Shown: positions 29,499-55,832, numbered from the stretch's first letter. The stretch is DNA of 60,388 nucleotides from Thermodesulfobacteriota bacterium (GCA_040758155.1 JBFLWB010000140.1:1-60388); one strand, 5' to 3'. The notes: generated by a model from the letters alone, not told the origin. A program made the numbers and translations.

Positions 29499-30416
29499 TC
29501 AGGGGAGGAAGCTCCCCCGGTACTCCTTCACGCCGCGGATCCCCTCCCGGGCCAGGAAATCGCGGATCCCCTCGACGATCTCGATGCACGCGTTCGGGTT
29601 GCGGAAATTGGCCGTCCCGACCTGTACCGCGGCCGCCCCGACGAGGAGGAACTCGAGCGCGTCCTCCGCGCTCCGGATCCCGCCGATCCCGATCACGGGG
29701 ATCTTCACCGCCTTGCACGCCTCCCACACCATCCGCAGCGCCACCGGCTTGATCGCCGGCCCCGAAAGCCCCCCCGTCACGTTGCCCAGCCGCGGCCGCC
29801 GCGTCCGCGGATCGACCGCCATCCCCAGCAGCGTGTTGACGAGGGAGACCGCGTCTGCGCCCGAGTCCTCCGCCGCGCGGGCCATCTCCCCGATGTCGGT
29901 GACGTTCGGGGACAGCTTCACCCAGAGCGGCTTCGCGGTGGCCGCGCGGACCCTCCGGGTCAGCCCGTACAGCCCTTTCGCGGTGGAGCCGAACGCGATG
30001 CCGCCTTCCCTCACGTTGGGGCAGGAGACGTTCAGCTCGACCGCGGCCAGGGCGGGAACCGCGGACAGCCGCCGCGCGACCTCCTCGTATTCCTCCTCCG
30101 TCCGCCCGTAGATGTTCGCCACGAAGACGGCCCCCGCGTCCTCCAGCCGGGGGGCGACTTCGCCGATGAACCTCTCCACCCCGATGTTCTGCAGGCCGAT
30201 GGCGTTCAGCATCCCCGCCGGAGTCTCCACGATCCGCTGCGGCGCGTTCCCCCGCGTCGGGAGGAGGGAGAGCCCCTTCACGATCACCGCGCCGAGGCGG
30301 GAGATGTCGTAGAACGGCGCGAATTCCAGCCCGTATCCGAACGTCCCCGAAGCGCTCATCACGGGATTCTTCAGGAGCAGGCTCCCCACCCGCGCGGTCA
30401 GGTCCGGGGTCACCAT
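29499..30416 (-). CDS. pyrD: Dihydroorotate dehydrogenase B, catalytic subunit
   Basis: 3' part of track ORF 29499-31094, starting at MVTPDLTARVGSLLLKNPVMSASGTFG. NVSCPN and GGLSGPAIKP motifs. 7-nt overlap with the pyrK stop. Confidence 0.93.
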   Translation of the reverse strand: MVTPDLTARVGSLLLKNPVMSASGTFGYGLEFAPFYDISRLGAVIVKGLSLLPTRGNAPQRIVETPAGMLNAIGLQNIGVERFIGEVAPRLEDAGAVFVANIYGRTEEEYEEVARRLSAVPALAAVELNVSCPNVREGGIAFGSTAKGLYGLTRRVRAATAKPLWVKLSPNVTDIGEMARAAEDSGADAVSLVNTLLGMAVDPRTRRPRLGNVTGGLSGPAIKPVALRMVWEACKAVKIPVIGIGGIRSAEDALEFLLVGAAAVQVGTANFRNPNACIEIVEGIRDFLAREGIRGVKEYRGSFLP

Positions 30417-31225
30417 ACGACCTCCCGGGCATCGAACACCGGCCCCTCCTTGCAGACGCGCCGATAGGCGGTCCCGTCCCCTTCCCGCACCTCGGTCACG
30501 CATCCCCAGCAGACGCCGAACCCGCAGGCCATATGGTTCTCGAGCGACACCTGCGCGGGAACGCCCCGGGAGCCGGCCGTCTCCGCGATCTCCCGGAGCA
30601 TCTCCCTCGGGCCGCACGCAAGGATCGACAGCCGCCCGGCCTCGGGGGGCTTCAGGGCCTCGAGGCGGGCGCGGAGCGCGGCGCCCACCGTCCCGTGGAA
30701 GCCGGCGGTCCCGTCGTCGGTGCACAGGTGCACCCTGCCGGGCACGTTCCCCCCCGGGGTCCAATCCCGCGGGGGAAGCTGTTCGCGGGTCCGCGCGCCG
30801 AGGAACATCTCGAAATCGCTCCGTCCCTGCGAGAGGGCCATCCCGGCGGGGAACACCGTGGAGAAGCCGACACCGCCCCCCGCGAGCCACCAGGTCCGGT
30901 CGGGATCGTCGAGCCGGAAGCCGTTCCCCAGCGGCAGGGTGATGGACAGGGGGTCGCCCTCGTGCAGGCCGGACAGCAGCGCCGTGCCGCGCCCGACCAC
31001 CTTGTAGACGAACTCGACCGTTCCTGACACCCGGGTCCCTCCCGACCGGAAGATCGCGAGCGGCCTCGGGAGGAGCGGGTCGTTCCCGGGCCACCCCGAT
31101 ACCATGGCGAACTGTCCGGGCACGAACTCGACCCGGTCGGGGACCGCCACCTCCATCCGGTAGAAGATTCCGTGCCCCACGTTCCGCAGGATCCTGCCGC
31201 CGACGAACCGCGGATTAGCTCGCAT
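30410..31225 (-). CDS. pyrK: Dihydroorotate dehydrogenase B, electron-transfer subunit
   Basis: 271 aa. PGQFAMV, LPRPLAI, and C-terminal 2Fe-2S cysteines MACGFGVCWGC...C. The start codon lies inside the repeat element (see findings). Confidence 0.88.
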   Translation of the reverse strand: MRANPRFVGGRILRNVGHGIFYRMEVAVPDRVEFVPGQFAMVSGWPGNDPLLPRPLAIFRSGGTRVSGTVEFVYKVVGRGTALLSGLHEGDPLSITLPLGNGFRLDDPDRTWWLAGGGVGFSTVFPAGMALSQGRSDFEMFLGARTREQLPPRDWTPGGNVPGRVHLCTDDGTAGFHGTVGAALRARLEALKPPEAGRLSILACGPREMLREIAETAGSRGVPAQVSLENHMACGFGVCWGCVTEVREGDGTAYRRVCKEGPVFDAREVVW

Positions 31226-31527
31226 TTCTCACCAGCCTCCTACTGCGGCGGCGGATACGGGCACACCTACTGCGTTGTGCCCCTCCCGCCGGGAACGGCA
31301 TGATGGTGCCGGCGTCCGGGGGTACCCCAGGGAGCGTTTCTTGCCCGGGAGTGGGGCGCTCGGTCGGGCTCCTCGACGCACTGTCAAGTGCGCCTCCGGG
31401 GCCCTCGGTCGCGACGCCTTGTAGTGCTGCCAGGATGGCAGCATGCCGCGGAGGCCATGGATGGCCGGGAGCGGCCCACGCCCGTCTCCACCGCCTCGCT
31501 ACGGACGCTGGTGAGAAATGCGAGCTA
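31216..31527. repeat. Copy 1 of a 257/302-nt hairpin-rich element with terminal inverted repeats (candidate structured ncRNA or MITE)
   Basis: Core is 31221-31522. Termini are CGCATTTCTCACCAGC and GCTGGTGAGAAATGCG, extended by TAGCT/AGCTA. Near-identical to 54662-54918 except for a 45-nt insertion (31367-31411) and a few point differences. Confidence 0.85.
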
Positions 31528-31965
31528 TGTGGCATCCCTGTCCCGTATCTCCCGGGAGAGCAGCAGCGCGTCCTCCCCCGTGTCGGTGTAGTACCCTCTC
31601 CGGATCCCCTGGAACGCGAAGCCCAGCCGCCCGTAAAGCCGCTGCGCCTCCTCGTTCCCGGCCCGGACTTCGAGGTGGATCCGTTCCGATCCCGCCAGGG
31701 CCCCCCTGCGGATGCACTCCCGGACCAGGGCTTCCCCCACCCCCTGTCCCCGGAAATGCGGGTGCACCGCGATATTCAGGAGATGGGACTCGCCGGCGAC
31801 GTTCCAGCAGACGGCGTAGCCGAGGATCTCCCCCGGGGCCCCCTCCGCGACGAACGGCCGGGAGAAGGGACGGTCGATGTCCTCGGCGAACATCCCGCGG
31901 GACCAGGGCGTCGGGAAGGAGGCCTCCTCGATCGCCATCACCCCGTCGAGGTCGCAGGGGGCCAT
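31525..31965 (-). CDS. rimI: Ribosomal-protein-alanine N-acetyltransferase (GNAT)
   Basis: 146 aa. IEEASFPTPW and the acetyl-CoA motif RGQGVGEAL typical of RimI. Confidence 0.85.
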   Translation of the reverse strand: MAPCDLDGVMAIEEASFPTPWSRGMFAEDIDRPFSRPFVAEGAPGEILGYAVCWNVAGESHLLNIAVHPHFRGQGVGEALVRECIRRGALAGSERIHLEVRAGNEEAQRLYGRLGFAFQGIRRGYYTDTGEDALLLSREIRDRDAT

Positions 31966-40335: not shown

Positions 40336-40443
40336 AGCCGGCGGGGGACACACCTGTCGGGGCAGAGGGGGACAGACTTAGCTTCAAACACGGGATGAAG
40401 GGTTAAGTCTGTCCCCCGCCTGGTATGTCCCCCTCTACCGGCT
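40336..40443. repeat. Nested palindromic element filling the queA-tgt spacer
   Basis: Four arms share GGGGGACA/TGTCCCCC: 40336-40350, 40364-40380, 40404-40420 and 40426-40443. The inner stem is a perfect 14 bp, GGGGGACAGACTTA/TAAGTCTGTCCCCC. A related copy lies at 52281-52340. Confidence 0.8.
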
Positions 40444-51863: not shown

Positions 51864-52277
51864 ATGGCGTTTCGCAATCCGCTCCCCACCGCCGACATGA
51901 TCATCGAGGTGGGGGACCGCATCGTCCTCGTCCGCAGGAAGAACCCTCCCGAGGGATGGGCCATCCCGGGAGGGTTCATCGAGGAAGGGGAAGCGGCGGA
52001 GTCCGCTGCCGTCCGGGAGGCCCTGGAGGAAACGGGGCTCTCCGTGGAGCTCGTCGCGCTGCTCGGCGTCTACTCCGATCCTTCGCGGGACCCGCGGTTC
52101 CACACGATCTCGACGGTCTACATCGGCAGGGCGGAAGGAAGCCCCGCCGGCGCCGACGACGCCGCGGAGGCGCGCCTGTTCGGCGAGGGGGACCTGCCCT
52201 CTCCCATCGCCTTCGACCACGCGAAGATTCTCCGCGATTACTACATTTTCAAAAAAACCGGGAAGCGACCGATGTGA
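51864..52277 (+). CDS. NUDIX hydrolase
   Basis: Internal start at MAFRNPLPTADMII (ATG 51864), preceded by GGGAGGA. Nudix box GGFIEEGEAAESAAVREALEETG. Confidence 0.85.
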   Translation: MAFRNPLPTADMIIEVGDRIVLVRRKNPPEGWAIPGGFIEEGEAAESAAVREALEETGLSVELVALLGVYSDPSRDPRFHTISTVYIGRAEGSPAGADDAAEARLFGEGDLPSPIAFDHAKILRDYYIFKKTGKRPM

Positions 52278-52280
52278 ACT

Positions 52281-52340
52281 GGCGGAGGACACACTTCCCC
52301 TTCATCCCGCGTTTGAAGCGAAGTATGTCCCCCTCTGTCG
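52281..52340. repeat. Second member of the GGGGGACA-type palindromic element family
   Basis: GGCGGAGGACACACTT - CCCCTTCATCCCGCGTTTGAAGCG - AAGTATGTCCCCCTCTG. It aligns, loop included, with the minus strand of 40364-40420. Lies between the convergent NUDIX and aminotransferase stops. Confidence 0.6.

Positions 52341-53541: not shown

Positions 53542-53545
<4 letters not shown>
52349..53545 (-). CDS. Class I PLP-dependent aminotransferase (aspartate aminotransferase-like)
   Basis: 3' part of track ORF 52349-55021, starting at MKLAKRVGKIQPSATLAI (ATG 53545, ATGA overlap). NSPSNPTG and the PLP lysine SKSHSMTGWR. Confidence 0.92.
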
Positions 53546-54036
<491 letters not shown>

Positions 54037-54045
54037 CCGGCCTCC

Positions 54046-54591
54046 TCAAGGGACCTCGAAAAATGAGACGCGGGTGTCTCCGTATCGTTTCTCGGAAACC
54101 CGGATCCATCCGCCCGGCGCCGGCGCCGCCTCCCTGGCGGCGCTTTCCGCGACCACGATCGCGCCGGGGTCGAGGATCCCCGCCCGGCGGATCTCCTCCC
54201 CCGCCCGCTCGAGCAGCCCCTTTCCGTAAGGGGGGTCGAGGAACACGAGGGAGAACTTCTCCCCCCCGGCCGCCAGCCTCCGCAGCGCCTTCCGGTAATC
54301 CATGGAAAGGCATGCCGCCTGCGGGGCGCCGACGGCAGCGAGGTTCGCCTTCACCGCTTCGACCGCCGGGGGGAACGATTCCACCAGCACGGCGGTTGCG
54401 GCCCCCCGGGAGAGCGCCTCGATGGCCATGGCGCCCGTCCCGGCGAACAGGTCCAGCACCCTCGACCCGACGACCCGCTCGCCCAGGACCGAGAAGACCG
54501 CCTCGCGCACCCGGTCGGTCGTCGGCCGGACCGCCATCCCGCGCGGCGCGCGCAGCGTCCTTCCCTTCCACCTTCCGGCGACGACCCGCAA
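54046..54591 (-). CDS. rsmD: 16S rRNA (guanine966-N2)-methyltransferase
   Basis: 181 aa. RPTTDRVREAVF, DLFAGTGA and FLDPPY motifs. TTG start. Confidence 0.88.
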   Translation of the reverse strand: MRVVAGRWKGRTLRAPRGMAVRPTTDRVREAVFSVLGERVVGSRVLDLFAGTGAMAIEALSRGAATAVLVESFPPAVEAVKANLAAVGAPQAACLSMDYRKALRRLAAGGEKFSLVFLDPPYGKGLLERAGEEIRRAGILDPGAIVVAESAAREAAPAPGGWIRVSEKRYGDTRVSFFEVP

Positions 54592-54658
54592 ATCCGCCCC
54601 GAACGCATCGTTTTCGGCTCATTATTGGGATTTCGGCGGCGGTCGTCAAGGCGTCCCT

Positions 54659-54921
54659 GCCCGCATTTCTCACCAGCCTCCTGCTGCGGCGGCGGATACG
54701 GGCACACCTACTGCGTTGTGCCCCTCCCGCCGGGAACGGCATGATGGTGCCGGCGTCCGGGGGTACCCCAGGGAGCGTTTCTTTCCCGGGAGTGGGGCGC
54801 TCGGTCGCGACGCCTTGTAGTGCCGCCAAGGAGGGCGGTATGCCGCGGAGGCCAGGATGGCCGGGAGCGACCCACGCCCGTCTCCACCGCCTCGCTACGG
54901 ACGCTGGTGAGAAATGCGGGC
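54659..54921. repeat. Copy 2 of the 257/302-nt hairpin-rich element with terminal inverted repeats
   Basis: Core is 54662-54918, with the same 16-nt termini as copy 1, extended by GCC/GGC. Same orientation as copy 1. Lacks the 45-nt insertion. Confidence 0.85.
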
Positions 54922-54950
54922 CGGCGACTCCTCCGCGGCCGCGTGCTACA

Positions 54951-55832
54951 ATGGCCCGGAAATCCGGCGATCCGTCCGAGGAGCTGTTGGCCGAAATCAC
55001 CGCGTTGCGCGTCGGGTGCATCCCCTACGCGAACCTCATACCCATCTTCCACGCGCTGCAGGGCTCCCGCGCCGCGGGCGAAGCCCTGTTCGTGGACGGC
55101 CACCCTTCCGAGCTGAACCTCCTGATGCGGGCGGGCGGCCTGGATCTCTCTCCGAACTCCTCCATCGAGTACGCCGTGCGCCCCGACCTGTACATCCTCT
55201 GCCCCGGGATCTCCGTCGCTTCGCGCACCCGCGTGATGAGCGTCCTCCTCCTCTCGAACGGGCCGCTCCGGCAGCTCCCTCCGGACCCGATCGCGGTGAC
55301 GGGCGCGTCCGCCACTTCGGTAGCCCTTCTCGAGATCCTGCTGGGCGAATCGCTCGGGCGCAGGAACGCCCTCGTGACCACGTCCCTTCCGCCTGCGGAA
55401 GCGCTGCGCTCCCACCCGGCGTATCTCGCCATCGGCGACGAGGCCATCCGCGCGGCCGTCGAAGGGACCGCGCCGCACGTCACCGACATGGGGGAATGGT
55501 GGACGCGGGAAACCGGGAAGCCGTTCGTCTTCTCCCTGTGGATCGCCTCCCGCGCGGCGTGGGAAGGGCAGGCAAGGGAACCGCTTTCCCGGTTCGCCGC
55601 GGCGCTGATCGACGCCAAGCGGTCCGTCCAGGAATCGATCCGCCGCGGGGAATACCCGTGGGGCGGCCCCGGATGGATCCCCGCGAAGTTCCGGGAGGAT
55701 TACTGGCGCTGCCTCTCCTACGATCTCGACGAGGAAACGGAGGGGCTCTCCCTCTTCTTCCGGCTGGCGGCGAAGTACGGGAGGATTCCCTTCGCCCCGT
55801 CCCTCCGGTTCCTTGAGCCCGGCCCGGCATAA
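54951..55832 (+). CDS. mqnA: Chorismate dehydratase (futalosine-pathway menaquinone biosynthesis)
   Basis: 3' part of track ORF 54063-55832, starting at MARKSGDPSEELLAEITALRVGCIPYANLIP. MqnA-like LRVGxIPYxNxxP and SSIEY motifs (periplasmic-binding-protein-like fold family). Confidence 0.83.
   Translation: MARKSGDPSEELLAEITALRVGCIPYANLIPIFHALQGSRAAGEALFVDGHPSELNLLMRAGGLDLSPNSSIEYAVRPDLYILCPGISVASRTRVMSVLLLSNGPLRQLPPDPIAVTGASATSVALLEILLGESLGRRNALVTTSLPPAEALRSHPAYLAIGDEAIRAAVEGTAPHVTDMGEWWTRETGKPFVFSLWIASRAAWEGQAREPLSRFAAALIDAKRSVQESIRRGEYPWGGPGWIPAKFREDYWRCLSYDLDEETEGLSLFFRLAAKYGRIPFAPSLRFLEPGPA

Follow-up and report, generated by a model that had tools for sequence, protein, structure and literature searches.

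A hairpin-forming MITE in the rsmD-mqnA spacer that very probably descends from, or is moved by, IS1380-family insertion sequences

Bacterial MITEs that form long hairpins are known from the enterobacteria (ERIC/IRU) and from Neisseria (Correia/NEMIS). ERIC/IRU and Correia elements are imperfect palindromes of ~100-170 nt that use TA-containing targets, and they occur as size variants created by internal insertions at fixed points. They lie between genes, are often co-transcribed with them, and can alter the expression of their neighbours. REPINs, by comparison, are mobilised by RAYT tyrosine transposases and have neither terminal repeats shared with insertion sequences (ISs) of the DDE type nor target duplications. 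IS1380 transposases have been taken as the prokaryotic outgroup of piggyBac (PMC10813416).

Here, we describe a repeated element with two copies in a 60,388-nt stretch of DNA from a Thermodesulfobacteriota bacterium (hereafter, the window). Judged by the features described above, it resembles ERIC/IRU and Correia in being a hairpin palindrome with TA targets, size variants at fixed points, and an intergenic location. In contrast to those families, with which it has no sequence similarity, its IS partner belongs to the IS1380 family, its hosts are high-G+C uncultured lineages of several phyla, and one of its copies replaces a start codon. Like REP elements and REPINs, it is palindromic, dispersed between genes and able to form hairpins in DNA or RNA, but it differs from them in that its ends are those of a DDE IS and its targets are duplicated. 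It also recalls piggyBac, a transposon of eukaryotes, in having CCC...GGG ends and a duplicated 4-bp target with TA at its centre (TTAA for piggyBac; CTAG, CTAA and GTAG here), whereas our element is bacterial and non-autonomous, with a relaxed target (xTAx, and CCGG for one of the window copies). A limited literature search returned no description of an IS1380-linked MITE or of a Nitrospira MITE. MITEs are a known kind of element, to which this IS1380-tied hairpin family adds an example from little-studied lineages, namely Deferrimicrobia-like 'Deltaproteobacteria', Nitrospirales, Pirellulales and Acidobacteriota.

The copy on which we focus, copy 2, lies between the divergent genes rsmD and mqnA, and copy 1 lies at the junction of rimI and pyrK. 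Their limits and internal parts are as follows.

54659-54921, no strand assigned: copy 2 of the MITE, 263 nt, delimited by repeat pairing and alignment with copy 1
54660-54920: copy 2 by IS1380-style limits, the outermost G and C then being counted as target duplication
54659-54677, plus strand: left terminal inverted repeat of copy 2, GCCCGCATTTCTCACCAGC, an exact inverted match to 54903-54921
54903-54921, plus strand: right terminal inverted repeat of copy 2, GCTGGTGAGAAATGCGGGC
54718-54796: module A in copy 2, 79 nt of additional hairpin that follows CTGCGTT in the left arm
54821-54871: module B in copy 2, 51 nt of additional hairpin that follows CCTTGTAG in the right arm
54797-54820: apex-loss junction of copy 2, where one 8-nt direct repeat, CTCGGTCG, is left
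31218-31525, no strand assigned: copy 1 of the MITE, 308 nt, comprising the 178-nt core and modules A and B, with the apex intact
31277-31355: module A in copy 1
31425-31475: module B in copy 1
31359-31403: apex of copy 1

In a repeat search, positions 54659-54807 pair with 31218-31366 (98%) and 54855-54921 with 31459-31525 (97%), and an alignment of the two copies has a sole large difference, a 45-46-nt segment found in copy 1 only. Both ends of both copies carry the perfect 15-nt inverted end GCATTTCTCACCAGC (four matches in the window vs 1.15 expected), and the inverted ends are perfect over 15-19 nt in the two copies. Because the outer ~45 nt of the arms pair as well, a single long hairpin forms from either strand. 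The predicted folding energy of copy 2 is -163 kcal/mol for either strand (z of -5.1 and -6.7) and that of copy 1 is -187 kcal/mol, with z-scores across the window copies of -5 to -8. No Pfam family matches the ORFs crossing the copies, indicating no coding capacity.

A scan of one genome per species with the 19-mer GCATTTCTCACCAGCSTCC returned 103 stretches, against ~35 matches expected by chance. Some isolated 19-mer matches look like chance, and most are paired inverted ends; since the 19-mer was the search key, the conservation of this stretch is partly by construction. The scan yielded 66 complete relatives bounded by terminal inverted repeats, of which 45 measure 176-180 nt and a few 202-341 nt; another 12, the 'mini' forms (51-73 nt), consist of the two ends only. 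The canonical family termini read CCCGCATTTCTCACCAG...CTGGTGAGAAATGCGGG. Host MAGs are labelled Nitrospirales/Nitrospira, Pirellulales, Terriglobales, Thermoanaerobaculales, Gammaproteobacteria, 'Deltaproteobacteria', Candidatus Deferrimicrobiaceae and unclassified bacteria; at least nine loci come from one of them, MFD04716.bin.1.102, and many from others. The window's own proteins are closest to those of 'Deltaproteobacteria'/Deferrimicrobiaceae MAGs, and neither CoaD nor RimI of the window has an exact match among protein records. A search of plasmid DNA with the element gave no match.

Subfamilies from different phyla have unrelated inner sequence and a common plan, in which a terminal stem of 18-19 bp is followed by a conserved internal loop of asymmetric shape, by middle stems and, at the apex, by a stem-loop (for example CGAC-GTAGTGTCAACTAC-GCC). 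All 40 distinct canonical copies fold as a single hairpin of 55-71 bp with nearly all pairs in register between the arms. An alignment of L007 (178 nt), L045 (230 nt), L003 (258 nt) and the window copies resolves the size variants into core, core plus A, core plus B, core plus A plus B, and apex deletion. Module A (79 nt) is present in both window copies and L003 and absent from the 178-nt core form, and module B (51-52 nt) is present in both window copies and in L045/L048. Copy 2 equals copy 1 minus a 46-nt apex, and the segment it lacks is the apical stem-loop conserved in the 178-nt family. We ruled out that the extra 45-nt segment of copy 1 is an insertion: it is the ancestral family apex, and copy 2 is therefore the deleted form. 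The loss is consistent with deletion between two CTCGGTCG direct repeats.

The termini connect this family to the IS1380 family. Two unpaired matches from one Alphaproteobacteria MAG, L096 and L068, are an IS end, and at L096 a frameshifted IS1380-family transposase (NF033539, PF13701) adjoins the terminus. Intact ISs in the same genome (L112 and L113) read CTAG/CCCGGATTTCTCACC...GCTGGTGAGAAATGCGCG/CTAG (/ denotes the IS border), and the ends of these ~1.77-kb ISs can likewise be given as CTAG/CCCGGATTTCTCACCAAC...GCGCTGGTGAGAAATGCGCG/CTAG. A related IS with CCCG...CGGG ends, found in eight copies in another assembly and once elsewhere, has identical flanks in every copy (CTAG in seven, GTAG/GTAG in one, CTAA/CTAA in one). 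In total, the 4-bp duplications are identical in 11 of 11 IS copies (nine of CTAG and one each of GTAG and CTAA). From a cultured host, the annotated IS1380-family IS of plasmid pKF715A of Pseudomonas putida KF715 reads CTAG/CCCGCATTTCTCAC...GTGAGAAATGCGGG/CTAG, and its ends, written as CTAG/CCCGCATTTCTCACAGG...GCTGTGAGAAATGCGGG/CTAG, exactly match the first 14 nt of the CCC-initial terminus of the window element. Across the comparisons, MITE and IS1380-family termini match over 14-18 nt, CCC start included, and the terminal repeats of copy 2 have the same terminus as the relatives and these ISs.

Because IS1380-family ISs share its ends, the element is a MITE carrying IS1380-family ends. The pKF715A copy and the other ISs (L112-L122) have in common with it the terminus CCCGCATTTCTCAC / CCCGGATTTCTCACC counted from CCC, CTAG-type flanks, and target duplication. 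In contrast to the ISs, the window element has no transposase, measures 263-308 nt rather than ~1.77 kb, and is self-complementary throughout, both of its arms resembling the IS right end; moreover, the flanking 4-mers of the MITEs are often non-identical. Copy 2 is thus very probably a non-autonomous MITE derived from or mobilised by IS1380-family ISs. Neither the 60-kb window nor the 8-kb loci around MITE copies contain an IS1380-family transposase, the L096 locus in Alphaproteobacteria being the only exception, and this dearth of a cognate enzyme near the copies counts against such an origin. ORFs beside five unpaired terminal matches (L023, L084, L091, L053 and L005) are likewise not transposases. 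The CCC...GGG ends and 4-bp xTAx duplications of the IS copies strengthen the bacterial link to piggyBac. In a reading that we consider unlikely, IS1380/piggyBac-like transposition of these elements would need a folded single-stranded or cruciform form.

Read inward, the borders of the family are almost always yTA, then R-CCCGCATTTC. TA...TA flanks, within xTAx, occur in 41 of 67 copies, with outer bases that prefer C/T...G/A, and many of the remaining copies have one TA plus one CA, TG or GA, as expected from AT-to-GC decay. Sites of the form YTAR are scarce in the window, with 14 in 60 kb vs ~390 expected from base composition, and four of these lie within stop codons. The TA+R border coincides exactly with the end of a long ORF, one whose codon-position G+C is of the coding type, in about 23-33 of 66 copies, and we attribute this adjacency to stop codons to the scarcity of target sites combined with purifying selection.

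In the mechanism we propose, the MITE termini would be recognised by a DDE transposase of the IS1380 family acting in trans, and insertion would proceed through a 4-bp staggered cut with a preference for xTAx, mostly CTAG. In this genome, of 68% G+C, sites of that kind are very rare and cluster at stop codons and in intergenic DNA, which would account for the presence of copies beside unrelated genes. The initial annotation had argued that the element belongs to no single gene family and against a classical ligand riboswitch, favouring a dispersed, mobile or generic cis-acting element, and had suggested a catalogue of insertion contexts. The contexts of the relatives bear out its core argument: the genes flanking the 66 relatives are mutually unrelated with no fixed gene class, and orientation relative to the upstream gene is unbiased (12 vs 11). 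Of the features expected from a riboswitch, association with one gene class and a fixed 5′-leader orientation are absent, and the covarying structure that is present does not define the class alone. The element is very probably a mobile passenger, and not a riboswitch or gene-specific regulator.

Repeat pairing and gene calls agree in placing copy 2 between divergent rsmD and mqnA, as the initial annotation had it. The features of this spacer are listed below.

53542-54036, minus strand: coaD
54046-54591, minus strand: rsmD (TIGR00095)
54621-54649, minus strand: predicted sigma-70-like rsmD promoter (TTGACG, 17 nt, AATAAT; 10 of 12 matches, 0.1 expected)
54656-54659: left flank 4-mer CCTG, a probable copy of the CCGG target with one mismatch
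54921-54924: right flank 4-mer CCGG, a probable target duplication
54944-54952, plus strand: TGnTAcAAT box, putative extended -10-like element upstream of mqnA, conserved in L109-L111
Start at TTG 54987, plus strand: mqnA (PF02621)

Copy 2 begins 67 nt upstream of the rsmD TTG at 54591, close to the ~70 nt previously given. The 33 nt reported to the mqnA start did not hold: an ATG at 54951 lies 29 nt beyond the end of copy 2 and sits within the conserved TGnTAcAAT box, and the mqnA start in the gene call and in relatives is TTG 54987. The assignment to a divergent promoter region agrees with the predicted signals that flank the copy. The -35 box of the rsmD promoter ends 10 nt from the left end of copy 2, the TGnTAcAAT box lies 23-31 nt to its right, and both sequences are conserved in L109-L111. 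From these positions, copy 2 appears to lie between the predicted rsmD and mqnA promoters, sparing both core promoters. If there are no others, it would be transcribed from neither, which argues against an RNA role at this locus. Terminator-like sites (a G+C-rich hairpin followed by a T run) are absent at either copy, and the earlier suggestion of a terminator or processing role is not borne out, as copy 2 is apparently upstream of both promoters.

Comparison with relatives (MqnA 82-85% identity) supports insertion at this locus. The orthologous rsmD-mqnA spacers of L109, L110 and L111 are free of the element, and the empty site in all three reads CGTC-CCGG, with a single CCGG. An earlier view of ours, based on equal flank lengths, that copy 2 has no target duplication was revised, as IS-type limits give CCTG/CCGG at the conserved CCGG. 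This pair has the look of a duplicated 4-bp target that lacks TA and acquired one mismatch later (three of four bases match), an assignment made uncertain by the 1-2-nt variation in spacer length among relatives. The atypical flanks of copy 2, without TA and with a three-of-four match, count against an IS1380-type origin. Copy 2 consists of the 178-nt core and two internal hairpin modules less the apex. In the history we favour, it was inserted at CCGG between back-to-back promoters, and it is most likely a tolerated passenger untranscribed from either predicted promoter.

Copy 1 entered a different setting, in which the initial annotation had placed it correctly between rimI and pyrK without capturing how closely it engages them: the element abuts the rimI stop and contains the pyrK start.

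30410-31225, minus strand: pyrK
31223-31225, minus strand: pyrK start ATG, inside the terminal repeat and preceded by GGAGGCTGGTGAGAA; the public gene call P0001 starts here
31525-31527, minus strand: rimI stop TAG, composed of the flanking TA and the first base of the element
31525-31965, minus strand: rimI
31533-31535, minus strand: relic of the ancestral pyrK start, ATGCCACATAG, now parted from pyrK by the element

In five relatives (L104-L108) the rimI/pyrK junction is intact and element-free, with an 11-nt gene overlap; the sequence there is ATGCCTCATAG or ATGCCGTCTAA, in which the rimI stop falls inside the region of the pyrK start. The nearest PyrK homologues (84-86% identity) come from contigs with overlapping rimI and pyrK. 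On the gene strand, the occupied junction reads ATGCCACATA[G-element-C]TAATCC, so that copy 1 is flanked by TA/TA where the empty site in relatives has a single TA. With element-free sites at both window loci and IS1380-family termini, the mobility of the element that had been suspected is borne out. The idea that AGCT at copy 1 is a 4-bp target duplication is wrong. The copy-specific terminal pairs from which it arose are present as reported (GCC...GGC in copy 2, GCT...AGC in copy 1), but GCT/AGC is part of the inverted terminal repeat and not target DNA, and the duplicated target of copy 1 is TA within xTAx.

Copy 1 entered the TA of the rimI stop, rebuilt the stop as TA+G, and gave pyrK a new start codon, as the occupied and empty junctions indicate. 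The PyrK N-terminus is changed accordingly in sequence: it is MPHRNPRF in P0002, P0003, P0006 and P0008, begins MP... in nearly all others, and is MRANPRF in the window. The GGAGGCTGGTGAGAA stretch before the new ATG contains Shine-Dalgarno-like GGAGG and GGTGA, a candidate ribosome-binding site. Copy 1 would have been tolerated since its border rebuilds the rimI stop while the terminal repeat, read outward, could offer pyrK a GGAGG...ATG start; its survival may thus be owed to the rebuilt stop codon together with the translation start supplied by the repeat. Copy 1 therefore amounts to a natural experiment in which overlapping genes were split by a mobile element and both remained intact, the element contributing one base of a stop codon at one end and, at the other, a start codon with a candidate ribosome-binding site.

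These features invite the reading that the MITE was put to use after insertion, its hairpin being kept by selection at individual loci, which we regard as unlikely. Possible roles would be those of an mRNA stabiliser or processing site in operons, of a stop/SD-ATG bridge that preserves translational coupling and, at copy 2, of a cruciform-forming spacer that uncouples the divergent promoters. The start codon and stop at copy 1 favour it, as do three further loci (L057/L060, L078 and L088) with no alternative start codon near the repeat ATG. Donation of start codons was rejected as a general trait, however, since 7 of 10 further in-frame cases have an evident genuine start a few codons downstream; it is kept for copy 1 alone and is plausible at those three further loci. 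The adjacency to stop codons speaks no more strongly for host use, being largely explained by the location of rare targets.

Compensatory changes in the hairpin bear on the same reading. The terminal pairs of copy 1 are GCTCGC...GCGAGC against a family consensus of GCCCGC...GCGGGC, a double, pairing-preserving change, and another double change within the terminal repeat occurs in L092 (GCCTGC...GCAGGC). The T-A to C-G compensatory change suspected from the two window copies is therefore genuine, and it is one case of a family-wide compensatory pattern. At the borders, the base beside CCC/GGG is target-derived if the transposase makes identical 4-bp duplications. In 40 of the 41 TA-flanked MITE copies, this base and its partner on the other arm are complementary, though the flanking 4-mers are identical in only 18, a shortfall that counts against IS1380-type insertion; different 4-mers with a non-complementary inner pair occur in none of the 41. 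Each non-identical case looks, from its flanks, like a non-palindromic duplication in which one inner base was changed to pair across the stem. Taken with the double changes that copy 1 and L092 carry in the repeat and with those of the inner stems, this border pattern suggests either selection on the hairpin or a repair bias templated by it, and palindrome repair bias could yield the same pairing without any host function.

Should the border pairing bias reflect selection, hairpin MITEs would be more than inert debris. We nevertheless consider it doubtful that the hairpin is maintained at each inserted copy, by selection or hairpin-templated repair, beyond being a by-product of inverted ends. 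The basis for such maintenance lies in the compensatory double changes in the terminal repeat, the nearly invariable complementarity of the target-derived base, and the retention of the 178-nt plan with its apical stem-loop across several phyla despite exchange of the inner sequence. The 178-nt length, the conserved apical stem-loop and the compensatory changes also amount to more constraint than mobilisation in trans needs, and the strength of the compensatory changes in the stems implies that mobilisation in trans alone is no explanation for them. On one such reading, the element would be 'operon-compatible', in that its closing stem would set an upstream stop (TA + G/A) opposite an outward GGAGG...ATG. 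Termination at the stem foot could allow the ribosome to expose the start site of the gene that follows, and insertion into overlapping gene junctions would then be nearly silent, as at rimI/pyrK.

In a 26-sequence alignment of the family, 95.8% of cells are paired and 16 of 30 predicted pairs show double-sided changes. The covariation score, which is not tree-corrected and can be inflated by related sequences, is 0.342, compared with 0.117 in shuffled alignments (0 of 500 reach the observed value); sliding the partners by 1-3 columns gives no more than 0.086. Covariation is strong in three helices, which could suggest a structured RNA, either a cis-regulatory leader or an ncRNA gene, whose closing helix merely resembles inverted terminal repeats. 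The stable folds (z of -5 to -8), a hairpin architecture that is the same across subfamilies with unrelated inner sequence, and variable hairpin insertions at fixed points, as in large structured RNAs, fit this description too. We find it very improbable, however. Both strands fold equally well, and neither an association with genes nor a preferred orientation (12 vs 11) is seen. Rfam 15 gave no match for the window and 11 related loci at the gathering score, and a permissive search of the element, at E up to 10, returned chance-level matches only (E above 2). Copy 2 lies upstream of both predicted promoters, orthologous loci differ by presence and absence with target duplications, and the ends are those of a DDE transposon.

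Least probable of all is a REP/REPIN spread by RAYT (a tyrosine transposase resembling that of IS200/IS605) or an IS630/Tc1-family MITE, which the palindrome, intergenic location and many copies, and for IS630/Tc1 an apparent TA duplication within CTAG that resembles the IS630 target, would allow, but against which stand termini that match IS1380-family ISs over 14-18 nt, the 4-bp duplications made by those ISs (including non-palindromic CTAA and GTAG), the much shorter length of REP elements and their want of target duplications, and the absence of RAYT or IS630 transposases among the selected ORFs tested near copies. An IS630/Tc1 MITE with a 2-bp TA duplication, which TA flanks and complementary end bases had led us to entertain, was dropped, as intact IS1380-family ISs share the ends and have identical 4-bp duplications.

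Wobble pairs in the family hairpins number 193 vs 97, favouring the complement of the window plus strand. We do not interpret this asymmetry, because the copies are related and share ancestral mismatches; gene orientation is also unbiased. For genome annotation, copies of this MITE lead to misplaced gene starts, to false long ORFs that cross the repeat, and to breaks in MAG contigs. Several of the loci end inside a MITE copy.

The bases bordering the hairpin element were compared across its TA-flanked copies, drawn from the window and from the stretches recovered by a genome scan with the terminal 19-mer (L001-L103). The pair just outside the outermost CCC/GGG of the element is complementary in 40 of 41 such copies, and only 18 of the 41 carry the same 4-mer on both flanks. 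From sequence comparison, this pattern looks like the conversion of target-derived bases into an additional stem pair of the element.

The IS1380-family insertion sequences that share their ends with the element (L112-L123) begin and end in CCC...GGG and are flanked by identical 4-bp duplications centred on TA (CTAG, CTAA, GTAG). In both respects they are closely paralleled by piggyBac, which has CCC...GGG ends and a TTAA duplication (PMC10813416). YTAR tetramers are exceedingly scarce across the whole window of 60,388 nt, with 14 observed against approximately 390 expected from base composition, and stop codons of long coding-like ORFs hold four of these 14.

At copy 1, between rimI and pyrK, both neighbouring genes incorporate element sequence. 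In window 30410-31535, the start codon and ribosome-binding site of pyrK come from a terminal repeat of the element, and the ancestral pyrK ATG (31535-31533) has been left stranded across the insertion from present-day pyrK. The rimI stop codon has been remade from the flanking TA and the first base of the element.

Near copy 2, in window 54944-54995, the ATG at 54951 that had been assumed to start mqnA falls within a conserved TGnTAcAAT box and is off-frame relative to the downstream coding sequence in L110, a relative's rsmD-mqnA locus lacking the element. The start is likely the TTG at 54987, which is preceded by GAGGAG.

At 51-73 nt, the shortened 'mini' derivatives hold hardly more than both terminal repeats:

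'Mini' derivatives: L004, L020, L035, L086, L066, L043, L009, L093, L032, L037, L057, L060

The copy in L020 sits between two convergent ORFs, each of which terminates at its TAG borders. The element also breaks short-read assemblies, as many MAG contigs terminate within a copy (L012, L024, L054, L063, L074, L077, L082 and L087, among other loci). In a two-arm alignment of the canonical copies, G-U-compatible transition mismatches are skewed about 2:1 (193 versus 97) towards the strand complementary to the window plus strand, though these copies are not independent.

The window also carries a second small repeat, unrelated to the MITE: a hairpin of about 60 nt with the form GGGGGACAGACTTA-loop-TAAGTCTGTCCCCC. 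A repeat search of the window found its two copies, in opposite orientations, to be 93% identical over 40 nt:

Window 40363-40425, orientation opposite to the other copy, small hairpin repeat, copy one
Window 52275-52337, orientation opposite to the other copy, small hairpin repeat, copy two

The hairpin at 52275-52337 lies immediately 3′ of a TAA stop codon and is followed downstream by a T run.
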